Assembly (NCBI RefSeq): GCF_022846255.1
Contig: NZ_AP025682.1
Origin: Escherichia coli
GTDB taxonomy: Bacteria > Pseudomonadota > Gammaproteobacteria > Enterobacterales > Enterobacteriaceae
Reading direction: 5' to 3' (one strand)
Length of the DNA stretch: 64,000 bases
Of this stretch, positions 36,001 through 39,000 are shown piece by piece. The stretch's first letter is position 1. The number at the start of each line of letters is the position of its first letter. Made by a program: the position numbers.

Positions 36001-39000
36001 CCAGTCTAAGGTCTATCAATTCACTGACGCGAAGTCCATGAATGTAAGTTATTTGCAGCAATGCTTTATCACGGATTTCATTGCGTGTACCCGTTATAGC
36101 ATTAAAAAAAAGCGCCCATTCGCTGTTGGTGATGTATTTACGCATATTTCCTCCTATCAGAGTTATATGTAAATTTTACATTTTTAGATAAAAGGAAGAC
36201 TTATCAGTTTCGGAAGTGGGTGTTGTAAGCGTTACCCGAACGCCGTATTGACGTTATCTTGCTTGGTCTTCAAAGACAATAAGTAAGCCCCTATACTGAG
36301 ACGTGGTGGAAAAATCAGTTTACATCCAGGGCAATAACTTCTTCACACGATGGTCGTTCGTTGGTGTGTAGTGGATCGGTAATTCAGGACACCTCGAAAT
36401 CCTGTTAATGTTAAAACAGTGAAAATGAGGTGATGCATGATCAAAACTCGTCGGACTAAACGTACCTTTTCCCCGGAGTTCAAACTTGAAGCTATCGAGC
36501 AGGCGGTTAAATACCAGCGTGATGTCAGAGAAGTCGCGCTGGCACTCGAGCTCAACCCTGATCATTTGCGTAAATGGATACGGTTGTATAAGCAGGAACT
36601 TCAGGGTATTGAGCCCGCTGGTAATGCTATTACCCCTGAACAACGCGAAATTCAGCAGCTTAAAGCGCAGATAAAGCTCCCTGAGATGGAAAAAGAAATA
36701 CTAAAGCAAGCTGCCGTGTTGATGAGCAAAATCCCCGGTAAGCTGTCGCGCTAATCACACGGCTGAAAGTAAAGTGGCCAGTGCGGGTTCTTTGTCATTT
36801 ATTCGGTATTCACCGTAGCGTTTATTACATGCTGGTGAAGCGTCCTGTTAATGTGCAAAAAATTGAATTACGAAGTCGGGTGAGGGCTTTCCATGCTCTC
36901 AGTCGTGGCGCAGCCGGTAGCCTAGCATTCAGTCAGATGTTGCGCCAGAGTGGCGTTGATGCAGGCCGGTGGCTGGCACGACGGCTGATGCGGGAATGCG
37001 GGCTGACAGGTCGACAGCCGGTTAAACATCACTACCGGGTAAACGAAGACAAAAGTCCGCCATTGCCAAATATACTGAACCGGCAGTTTAACCCCGCCGC
37101 ACCAGACGCGGTCTGGTGCGGCGACATCAGTTTTATTCGCCTGCAGGACAAATGGTGTTATCTCGCGCTCGTTGTTGATTTATATTCACGTCGGATTATC
37201 GGTTCAGCCCTCCCATTAACCGCTGATGCTGAGTTGGTGTGCAGGGCTTTGCGTAATGCACTGGAAACACGACCGCGTGATGACCGCCTGCTGTTTGATT
37301 CAGAGCAATGTGTTCAGTATAAATGCAATAAATACAGAAAGTTACTCTGGCGTTATGGGGTAATGCAAAGTATGAGTCGCAGAGGGAATTGCCTGGATAA
37401 TTCGCTGATGGAAAGAGTCTTTCGCAGCCTTAAAAGTGAATGGCTTCCGAAAGGTGGTTATGGTGATTTTAGCCATGCGGTACGAGATATAAACCCGTGG
37501 ATTAATGGTTATTACAACGTTTATCGACCTCACACGAACAACGGTGGTTTACCGCCTTGCTTACATGAACAGGTTATCCCGGTGTCCTGATTTTGTGATC
37601 CACTACAAGTTATATGTGCTTGACTTTATGATTTTTTAGTTAAATAGAATAATTGGTGCAACTTTAAAGTCTTTTCTACTTAAAGGATACAACTTTATTG
37701 GCTCTACACAATTGCAGCGAAGTCGTCCTGAGCTATTTCCGAAAGATGAAAATTATTAGAGTCGCATTAAAAATGAGCTAATTTTGATAGTGGTTATCTT
37801 GTGATTATTTTCTAATGAGCCTGTGAACTGAAACCCTCCATGCTTAATATAAGGTGGAGGGAAAGATGATTAAAACTCCCCCAGTGGCCAGATCTTTATA
37901 AAATATGAACAGGTTGAAAAAATCAGCAACTTTGCTGTTTATTTATACTTAACCACTATGCATTAATGCTGCGTTATTTCATGATACCTAAGAAAAACCA
38001 GCGTTACGCAAATAATCAACGCTGGTTTTATCCGGTACGTTGCAATTATTTTTTAGCAGAACCCGCTTCTAATATTGAAACGATTGAGAACAACGTAAAG
38101 CATACCGCTCCCAAACCGACCAGAACCCGCGAAGGAATAAAATACCCTATGTCGGTCTGCGCCATTTCCGCAAGAAACGATGCCAGGAAAAGGCAAAACA
38201 GGCAGGTGAAGACGGGAATCATCGGTATTCTGTTGGCTAACGAACAGGTACGTCTCCAGACCAGTGCCAGTAGCCAGACTTTTGAGAATATGCTGTAACA
38301 GATCATTCCGAGGCAAATGAGAATAATGCCGGGAGCCAGTCGGGCGCTTGCATCGGAGCTGACTAACACGTATATGCCCTGCAGCACCGTGATTGAGCCG
38401 AGAATAATAACCCAATAACACCACAGCCAGTGCTCTTTGGATGAGAACGTATTACGTGTTTGATGGACGATTGTGGCAACAAGACCAATTAGACAGGCAC
38501 AGATTGCGGTTAACCCAAGCAATACGTGACCGGCGACATAATGTGGAGTTATGTCGGCACTACGTAACAGCGTAATAGACCAAATGAAACCGAGCAGGGT
38601 GAGTAAAACGGGAACGGCAATGAGGCAATTACCGATTAATGACGAATAAGCCTGTACCGGTGTTCCATCGCTCTTGCTCCCTGCTGCGTTTTTGGGAATG
38701 AGCAGAAAGTGACCGGATGACGCTGCCACTGTCGATACACAGGCGGCAATCATACCAACGCCAAAAATAACATGGCCGGCAACAAACTCGTCTGCCATCA
38801 CATCATTGCCTGCTAACAGTGCCCAACCCCATATCATGGTGATAATTGACCCCGCATAGCCAATAATGGGGAACAATGTATTGTAAAACGTATTAACGCC
38901 GCGCGTGAGCTGCGAAATGATAATAAATGCGGTAGTGAATAATGCCAGGCATATGGCTGCCAGAGAAATCAGCACATGACCCGCGACGAAATACTCACTT

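Follow-up and report, generated by a model that had tools for sequence, protein, structure and literature searches.

A probably non-autonomous ISKpn37 copy next to the left end of a Tn6230-type Tn7-like island in Escherichia coli

The element and its host island

The 64-kb stretch of E. coli DNA analysed here (the window) contains a Tn7-like island that carries tib adhesin genes, and an insertion sequence of the IS3 family lies close to the left end of this island. The features that define both are the following.

23336-37710: Tn6230-type Tn7-like island, in the 3' end of yhiN
23336..23442, plus strand: right end of the island, overlapping the new yhiN stop codon
23347-23361 and 23367-23382: right-end repeats, accompanied by degenerate ones
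37616..37710, minus strand: left end of the island, with terminal 5'-TGTGTAGAG and three TAAAGTTG-type repeats
37685-37699, 37655-37669 and 37616-37632: left-end repeats, the last being the third and innermost
37711..37715, partner at 23331-23335: 5-bp target duplication ATTGC of the island
36367..37607, plus strand: whole ISKpn37-type element, 1241 bp (canonical length 1253 bp)
36367..36393, plus strand: left inverted repeat (IRL), beginning 5'-TG
37581..37607, plus strand: right inverted repeat (IRR), ending CA-3'

The native 3' end of yhiN resumes at 37711, and in island-free E. coli the sequence from this position onward lies inside yhiN. The end-repeat motif has five matches in the 64 kb (1.09 expected by chance), four of which lie at the island ends, inverted at one end relative to the other, and the island termini are TGT...ACA. 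The end repeats, the ATTGC duplication and the yhiN site support the sequence-only reading, which had placed the element immediately inward of a Tn7-like transposon's left end. The transposition genes of the island are reduced to a split tnsA (TnsA-like fragment at 23846-24331, Pfam PF08722) and a tnsB stub to 24972, followed by an IS1 fragment. The full set of TnsA, TnsB, TnsC and TnsD is annotated in the orthologous island of NZ_AP045178 and absent here, which makes the island of the window a decayed Tn7-like transposon. Tn6230 has been documented at the yhiN/yhiM hotspot (PMC10121019; PMC11406308). Tn6230-type transposons share with the window island the attachment site, the 5-bp duplication, the TGT ends and multiple end repeats, whereas the transposition genes of the latter are reduced; a transposon of this type is the host of the ISKpn37 copy and not the insertion sequence itself.

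The ends of the element were set by aligning independent copies with different flanks. IRL and IRR match each other at 23 of 27 positions, a weaker complementarity extends to arms of 45 nt (80% complementary), and the terminal repeats TGTAGTGGATC...GATCCACTACA form the longest inverted repeat of the 14.5-kb island. These imperfect repeats (TGTAG...CTACA, with TG...CA tips) and the length of 1241 bp fit the IS3 family, whose members measure 1.2-1.55 kb. An IS3-family element at 36367-37608 with an orfA/orfB layout and imperfect inverted repeats of about 27 bp had been claimed from the sequence alone; the family, the start, both ORFs and the repeats were all recovered, while the inverted repeats place the end at 37607, 1 nt before the position first given. 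The family assignment is based on matches to HTH_Tnp_1, rve and NCBIfam NF033516 ('IS3 family transposase') and on the naming of close relatives: NF033516 is matched by both orfA and orfB (orfB with 251.7 bits, cut-off 160), and the nearest protein, 91% identical, is named 'IS3-like element ISKpn37 family transposase'.

Plasmids of Klebsiella and Raoultella carry intact copies of 1253 bp, from which the element differs by 41 substitutions and a 12-bp deletion; 41 substitutions over 1241 aligned bases correspond to 96.7% identity to these copies, named ISKpn37 by NCBI. By ISfinder convention, a nucleotide identity of at least ~90% to the reference element denotes the same IS; the name ISKpn37 as used here follows the NCBI product naming of the intact copies, not an ISfinder entry. 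The plasmid copies, from Klebsiella oxytoca pKPC_CAV1099 (NZ_CP011595.1), K. variicola (NZ_ON169979.1) and Raoultella (NZ_CP139091.1), have the same ends and the same gene layout as the window copy, and its first 70 nt and last 20 nt show no difference from an intact copy. They differ in having open genes and target duplications of 3-4 bp, whereas the window copy has a stop in the OrfAB frame and no target duplication, is 12 bp shorter and encodes DSEQC in place of HSDQG.

Coding regions and their lesions

In active IS3-family members, the OrfAB transposase arises when ribosomes shift into the -1 frame from orfA to orfB, and transposition follows a copy-out/paste-in route through a circular intermediate. 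The corresponding features of the window copy, all on the plus strand, are listed below.

36437..36754, plus strand: orfA, helix-turn-helix protein, 105 codons, uninterrupted (Pfam HTH_Tnp_1, 3e-18)
36701..36706, plus strand: presumed -1 frameshift site CTAAAG (A AAG), preserved
36739..36741, plus strand: TAA stop in the orfB (-1) frame
36742..37590, plus strand: orfB remnant with rve integrase-core domain, open but degenerate
37297..37311, plus strand: mutated catalytic motif DSEQC
37567..37568, plus strand: joint of a 12-bp in-frame deletion

OrfA is equal in length to the OrfA of intact copies. With orfA in frame 2 and orfB in frame 1, the two genes have the 0/-1 arrangement, although they overlap by only ~10 nt owing to the new TAA, whereas in intact copies the overlap reaches back to just before the slip site. 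At the presumed frameshift site, the PGAP annotation of intact relatives fuses the two frames into ...EKEI(P)KAGCR...; the slip position itself is assumed by analogy with the A AAA AAG site of IS911. The two-ORF layout and a frameshift at the conserved ...EILK(K) position resemble IS911, which is distant in sequence: P0070, which we take to be an IS911-like protein, shows 45% identity across OrfB, and the slip motif of IS911, A AAA AAG, is reduced to A AAG in the window. A hairpin predicted 3' of the slip site is no better than those of shuffled sequences (z = +0.39 in the window and -0.66 in an intact copy), and an Rfam search matched no frameshift element.

The TAA lies 11 codons past the slip site, where it would block the OrfAB fusion transposase. 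It goes back to a G-to-T substitution: intact copies read GGG AAG at this point, the window copy GGT AAG. The orfB remnant still matches Pfam rve at 7e-20 as well as rve_3 and HTH_21. In the protein alignment the second aspartate of the DDE triad (position 188, codon 37303-37305) is replaced by glutamate, while D128 and E224 are kept. H186, D188 and G190 are invariant in the other aligned proteins, all intact relatives have HSDQG, and DNA alignments show the same motif change; orfB is also changed at other, otherwise invariant positions. Since intact copies with 96.7% identity carry the full triad, the missing aspartate reflects degeneration and is not evidence against descent from the IS3 family. 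The 12-bp deletion removes four conserved C-terminal residues, E-E-K-W, including a conserved W. Over its whole length orfB differs from intact ISKpn37 by 25 non-synonymous and 8 synonymous changes (dN/dS ~0.96), which fits neutral evolution.

Because of the TAA in the -1 frame, the D-to-E change in the DDE triad and the four-residue C-terminal loss, the copy is predicted to be incapable of making a transposase, and the description of the element as apparently intact has to be given up. The features that could suggest an intact, autonomously active insertion sequence are real: both inverted repeats are present with tips identical to those of active copies, orfA is full-length, and a GTG-started ORF of 269 codons (36781-37590) is open within the orfB frame. 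An OrfB started at this GTG, however, would miss the N-terminal DNA-binding part that OrfA provides, only one copy exists in the window, and the orthologues are annotated as pseudogenes; with the lesions described above and the neutral pattern of orfB, autonomous activity is hardly credible. We regard 36367-37607 as very probably a degenerate, non-autonomous ISKpn37 copy, taken jointly with the fuller explanation of its history given below.

The changes in orfA have a different pattern. Six synonymous and six non-synonymous differences from intact ISKpn37 give a dN/dS of 0.28, and the gene carries more synonymous change than neutrality predicts (p = 0.03). This value, together with an orfA reading frame that stays open in the window and five orthologous copies, would fit a domestication of OrfA as a small helix-turn-helix regulator while orfB decays. 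Yet there are only 12 differences, part of the divergence may predate inactivation, an ORF of 318 bp is expected by chance to outlast ~1% divergence, and in the lineage of two orthologous copies (L002 and L003) orfA is cut short by a stop at codon 32 and has lost 10 bp, all of which makes domestication highly improbable. The unchanged ends have another possible meaning, namely that the copy, while non-autonomous, is mobilisable in trans, or made to recombine, by the transposase of an active plasmid-borne ISKpn37, and active copies do travel on conjugative plasmids of Klebsiella and Raoultella. IS3-family transposases such as that of IS911 nonetheless act preferentially in cis, ISKpn37 typically occupies one place per E. 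coli genome, and the site of the window copy is fixed in all copies of the island with no sign of recent movement; mobilisation in trans is therefore unlikely. The open orfA with its excess of synonymous change, and the absence of any change in the outermost 70 and 20 nt, leave some room for residual constraint on the degenerate element or for such mobilisation.

Orthologous copies and the age of the insertion

Identical flanks border the element in seven complete E. coli chromosomes, as they do in several contigs from draft assemblies, Logan and metagenomes. The TAA stop and the D-to-E change are common to every orthologous tib-island copy sampled, whereas the deletions differ among lineages: the 12-bp deletion is restricted to the sub-lineage of the window (the window, L007, L012 and L013). 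In RefSeq, the orthologues from other E. coli are annotated as a pseudogene with the remark 'frameshifted; internal stop'. Their identity in substitutions is 98.8-99.8%; a BLAST identity of 95.4% had suggested an unusually divergent island, but this figure is an effect of the deletions. Since no sampled copy lacks the TAA or the D-to-E change, the sequence comparison shows that inactivation of the element preceded the spread of the island and that its further decay went on independently in each lineage, a pattern pointing to a single old insertion. The TAA at 36739 and the DSEQC motif can thus serve as a shared-lesion marker, according to which all sampled yhiN tib islands come from one ancestor.

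A composite transposon bracketing the tib module was also considered and rejected, as blastn and tblastn found no second copy of the element in the window. A fragment with an rve domain at 25516-26145 does not qualify as such a copy, since its match to the ISKpn37 transposase covers 138 residues at only 23% identity (E = 0.059).

Flanking sequences, the missing duplication and a proposed history

Two short segments separate the element from its neighbours.

36352..36366: 15 bp, GGTCGTTCGTTGGTG, between the end of the tib-module homology and IRL
37608..37615: 8-bp spacer, AGTTATAT, between IRR and the innermost left-end repeat

The close adjacency to the innermost left-end repeat recognised earlier is therefore correct, with a distance of 8 bp in place of the 9 bp proposed. 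On the other side, homology of the tib module to an IS-free locus in a non-coli Escherichia (L014, GCA_020283705.1) stops at ~36351, 15 bp from IRL, the module ending with ...CTTCACACGAT at 36341-36351. The target duplications of the IS3 family measure 3-5 bp, and 3-4 bp are left by the copy-out/paste-in route. No direct repeat of 3 or 4 bp flanks the window copy (...TTGGTG-IS-AGTTAT...); once the ends of the inverted repeats are defined, the immediate flanks GTG and AGT match at none of three positions, in agreement with the earlier impression that a clear 3-bp duplication is missing.

The duplications of intact ISKpn37 copies are GAAC or GGC, and that of one E. coli plasmid copy is CTG. It could be argued that the window copy is a simple insertion without any rearranged boundary, in which a duplication either failed to form or was lost to point mutations: the same two flanks occur in every sampled island, several other copies have no clean duplication, among them four other old copies in E. 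coli, and in two intact copies, from Salmonella and Enterobacter, the flanking bases match at only two of three positions. The three intact plasmid copies, however, represent two distinct insertions, both with perfect 3-4-bp duplications, and the loss of all three duplication positions by point mutation has a probability of ~1e-3 or less when the element itself diverges from active copies by only 3.3%. We consider a simple insertion rather unlikely and favour the alternative that one flank was replaced after the insertion, perhaps through a deletion adjoining the IS or through recombination involving another copy. This replacement, which we infer to be probable, is suggested by the lack of a target duplication and by the position of the element, which has the tib cargo module on one side and the 103-bp transposon end on the other.

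Empty sites were searched for in several data sets. Joined flanks were not found in E. coli complete genomes, where the left flank occurs only in IS-carrying genomes; an exact 19-mer of the right flank matched only unrelated bacteria among the GTDB species representatives, and in the JGI metagenomes it gave one true match, in which the IS is also present. Because an empty site is absent from these three collections, the rearranged boundary proposed by the sequence-only reading is plausible, given the duplications of intact copies and the very low probability of erasure by point mutation, but falls short of demonstration, and either flank may be the one that changed. The left end of the pco/sil Tn7-like island of O104:H4 can be aligned over the two outer repeats only and is silent on the sequence interior to the third. 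Two other contexts of the neighbouring recombinase gene were examined as empty sites and neither qualifies: one has IS600, interrupted by an IS30-type element, at the equivalent of window position 36240, and the other lies between gadB and pqqL in a non-coli Escherichia (L014).

On this reading, ISKpn37 entered a Tn6230-type left end a single time, at a point 8 bp inward of the third TnsB-type repeat; the lesions common to all sampled copies (the TAA and the D-to-E change) inactivated it before the island spread, and later decay proceeded separately in each island lineage. One flank would have been replaced after the insertion, erasing the target duplication, and today the copy serves as a fossil and boundary marker, not as an active element. 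A more speculative extension, to which we give a limited chance, is that the element is the scar of the loading of the tib adhesin/invasin module into a Tn6230-type transposon: the IS would first have inserted beside the third left-end repeat, and recombination or an adjacent deletion on the IRL side would then have joined the tib module to the transposon end. A weaker addition to this scenario is that the open orfA may have been kept for regulation. The missing duplication need not involve the tib module, since such loss is common for ISKpn37 in E. coli. If the element does mark the joint of the module, it would add another case of IS-mediated cargo capture by Tn7-like elements, a known theme.

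The ISKpn37-type IS itself is ordinary and already catalogued, and the result has little importance beyond annotation: both the IS and the Tn6230-type island around it now have exactly defined ends, and the window element is to be annotated as an ISKpn37 pseudogene rather than as an active element.

ISKpn37 copies are also linked to hlyCABD in E. coli, one of them lying beside these genes in GI-pheU of ST131 (PMC8386418). The hlyCABD-linked copies are degenerate as well, but they occupy other insertion sites and carry independent lesions; the copy adjoining hlyC on plasmid pVirR1, 95.7% identical to that of the window, keeps HSDQG and has a 1-bp deletion.

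Identity and extent of the insertion sequence

The element inside the left end of the tib-carrying Tn7-like island is assigned by sequence to ISKpn37, an already known insertion sequence of the IS3 family, as an isoform, since it differs from the 1253-bp plasmid copies by 41 substitutions and one 12-bp deletion. Its parts are as follows:

36367-37607, ISKpn37-type element, 1241 bp, with terminal repeats TGTAGTGGATC...GATCCACTACA (read in 36000-38000)
36437-36754, orfA, 105 codons, Pfam HTH_Tnp_1 (3e-18)
36781-37590, orfB, GTG-initiated ORF, Pfam rve (7e-20), rve_3 and HTH_21

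Assignment to the IS3 family had already been made from the sequence alone and proved correct: besides the HTH_Tnp_1 and rve matches, orfA and orfB match NCBIfam NF033516 (IS3 family transposase), and the reading frame of orfB is -1 with respect to that of orfA. The same sequence-only reading had extended the element from 36367 to 37608; the left end stands, and the right end moves back one base, to 37607, when the terminal repeats are followed. The inverted-repeat arms (45 nt, 80% complementary) form the longest inverted repeat across the 14.5-kb island, and IRL and IRR match at 23 of their 27 terminal positions.

The closest entry in a large protein collection is an "IS3-like element ISKpn37 family transposase" (91% identical). 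Of the complete E. coli genomes searched (5,426), 1,718 contain related sequence, for the most part fragmentary, and only 329 carry a match spanning at least 80% of the element. Among the best matches listed, full-length E. coli copies vary in length and show about 94-95% BLAST identity, and all those with inspected annotation (among L001, L002, L004, L005 and L026-L028) are pseudogenes. The only intact copies observed were on plasmids of Klebsiella and Raoultella and in Salmonella and Enterobacter; they include 1253-bp copies with a non-pseudogene ISKpn37 family transposase in the plasmid collection (Klebsiella oxytoca, K. variicola, Raoultella) and 388-aa full-length fusion proteins in Salmonella and Enterobacter. 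ISKpn37 adjoining hlyCABD in E. coli has been reported (PMC8386418), and the pVirR1 copy beside hlyC agrees with that placement. In Enterobacter ludwigii (L017, ~520-560 and 1783-1800), an otherwise intact copy shows an unusual IRL, TGTAGAGGATCGGTGGATCGG, in which the tip is partly duplicated, and carries the 10-bp GATAAATCGG on either side of the IS, offset from its ends.

Decay of the coding frames and shared ancestry

Active IS3-family relatives make the OrfAB transposase by -1 frameshifting and transpose by a copy-out/paste-in route through a circle, in which the abutted ends form a strong promoter. We infer the slip site to be CTAAAG (36701-06), preserved in the window copy, from PGAP frame joining and from the slip site of IS911, which we take to lie at the homologous position. 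A hairpin predicted downstream was not significant, and Rfam returned no match for a frameshift element.

Lesions were read from conceptual translation of 13 copies and protein alignment with intact relatives, and they overturn the earlier description of the element as apparently intact. A TAA at 36739-41, created by a G-to-T change 11 codons downstream of the slip region, interrupts the orfB frame and therefore makes the OrfAB fusion impossible. The invariant HSDQG is replaced by DSEQC, in which the second DDE aspartate has become glutamate (codon 37303-05), and a 12-base loss at 37567/68 removes EEKW with its conserved tryptophan. Further substitutions at otherwise invariant positions are PN to PD, P to L and S to C. 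Differences between orfB and its counterpart in an intact copy number 25 non-synonymous and 8 synonymous (dN/dS 0.96), indistinguishable from neutrality. With these lesions the window copy cannot supply transposase.

The orfA frame remains open. Its differences number only 12 and divide evenly between synonymous and non-synonymous, 6 of each (dN/dS 0.28, p = 0.03), so that synonymous change is relatively more frequent than in orfB. Domestication of orfA was not accepted, because of this small number and because the L002/L003 lineage has a premature orfA stop.

Seven complete E. coli chromosomes share the flanks, GGTCGTTCGTTGGTG on the left and AGTTATATGTGCTTG on the right, as do contigs from draft assemblies, Logan, ENA and JGI; one Logan contig (L013) is 100% identical to window 35500-39300. 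Substitution identity among the orthologues is 98.8-99.8%; their BLAST figure of 95.4% is lower because of gaps. The TAA, the H-to-D and the D-to-E changes are common to all orthologous island copies, so the element was already dead in the ancestor of all sampled islands. Some orthologues (L006, L010) retain the full 1253 bp, the 12-bp deletion marks the sub-lineage of the window, and in the L002/L003 lineage three further deletions, each of 10-11 bp, are accompanied by stops. These patterns point to one old insertion that decays independently in each lineage.

Over its first 70 and last 20 nt the IS is identical to active ISKpn37, and with such ends mobilisation in trans is conceivable. No sign of it was seen: the window holds one copy, and every sampled copy of the island carries the IS at one and the same site. 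The element is a fossil pseudogene, as RefSeq already annotates the orthologous locus; it is a known IS in dead form.

The Tn7-like island and its tib cargo

That the surrounding island is Tn7-like, as first read, is borne out by tns genes in an orthologue, a 5-bp duplication and clustered, inverted end repeats. The relevant features are:

23331-35 and 37711-15, island target duplication, ATTGC, 5 bp
23336-37710, island, beginning TGTTCAAAG... (overlapping the new yhiN stop codon) and terminating ...CTCTACACA
27817-30960, tibA, tib adhesin/invasin locus, cargo of the Tn6230-type island in the yhiN 3' end
30953-32173, heptosyltransferase gene, tib locus, island cargo
32497-33584, two regulators, tib locus, island cargo
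33722-33762, perfect 19-bp palindrome
33942-34604 and 35594-36145, two FimB/FimE-like tyrosine recombinases, both minus strand
34734-35597, AraC-type regulator, flanked by the two recombinases

Strains that lack the island have the native yhiN 3' end from 37711 on. Repeats of the TAAAGTTG type cluster in inverted orientation at both island ends, which hold four of the five motif matches of the window (1.09 expected by chance). The yhiN/yhiM hotspot is a documented site of the Tn7-like element Tn6230 (PMC10121019, PMC11406308), with which the window island agrees in type and site. The orthologous island in NZ_AP045178 runs from yhiN through TnsA, a transposase, an ATP-binding protein and a TnsD-family protein to IS debris, an EAL protein, tibA, a heptosyltransferase, regulators, two tyrosine recombinases, an IS3 pseudogene and yhiM. 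About 8 kb of it (tnsB, tnsC, tnsD and more) is missing in the window, where tnsA is broken into two ORFs of 72 aa and 162 aa (PF08722 on the latter; module 23479-26145), a tnsB stub stops at 24972 beside an IS1 transposase fragment (24986-25198), and tnsC and tnsD are absent. The window island is itself immobilised. At 25516-26145 a fragment with an rve domain shows only remote similarity to ISKpn37 (23% over 138 residues). The yhiM ORF (38046-39197) has 383 codons in the window ORF list and 350 aa in annotated RefSeq genomes, probably owing to an upstream in-frame start codon.

The layout of recombinases, AraC-type regulator and palindrome (33722-36366) suggests a putative invertible phase switch for tib. 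In the collection of papers searched, none linked tibA with Tn7. In L014 (GCA_020283705.1, 1-2500), a non-coli Escherichia with about 89% identity to E. coli in the gadB-pqqL flank, the tib and recombinase module lies between gadB and pqqL, without the IS or a Tn7-like end and lacking the 37 bp at window 36278-36314; the tib module is therefore placed at two different chromosomal sites. The IS sits 221 bp upstream of the start codon of the second recombinase. In other E. coli assemblies (L008, L009 and L011, ~1500-3906) the region upstream of the recombinase is cut, at the equivalent of window 36240, by an element that looks like IS600 judged by its ends; an IS30-type element has in turn split this IS600-like element, and CBASS-like genes (SMODS, SLATT_6) come next.

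The missing target duplication

The IS had been placed just inside the left end of the transposon, 9 bp from the innermost repeat. The placement holds, and the spacing to this third repeat (37616-37632) is 8 bp (37608-37615). The related left end of the pco/sil Tn7-like island (O104:H4) aligns with that of the window over the two outer repeats only.

No clear target duplication had been noted, and with exact ends the flanks (GTG left, AGT right) indeed agree at 0/3 positions. Perfect duplications flank three intact plasmid copies that stand for two distinct insertions (GAAC in L029, GGC in L030/L031), and a duplicated CTG flanks one copy on an E. coli plasmid. In two intact copies (Salmonella, Enterobacter) the flanking bases match at 2/3 only, and duplications are likewise absent from four further old copies in E. 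coli, most of them within IS debris. An empty site was not found in E. coli complete genomes, GTDB species representatives or JGI metagenomes. Erosion of the duplication by point mutation would require loss of all three positions, the probability of which is about 1e-3 or less at the 3.3% divergence of the element; rearrangement of one flank is therefore favoured and would be the better explanation. The IS occupies the exact junction of the tib cargo with the 103-bp transposon end, and the homology of the IS-free L014 module to the window ends at ~36351, 15 bp before IRL, both of which fit a rearranged flank.
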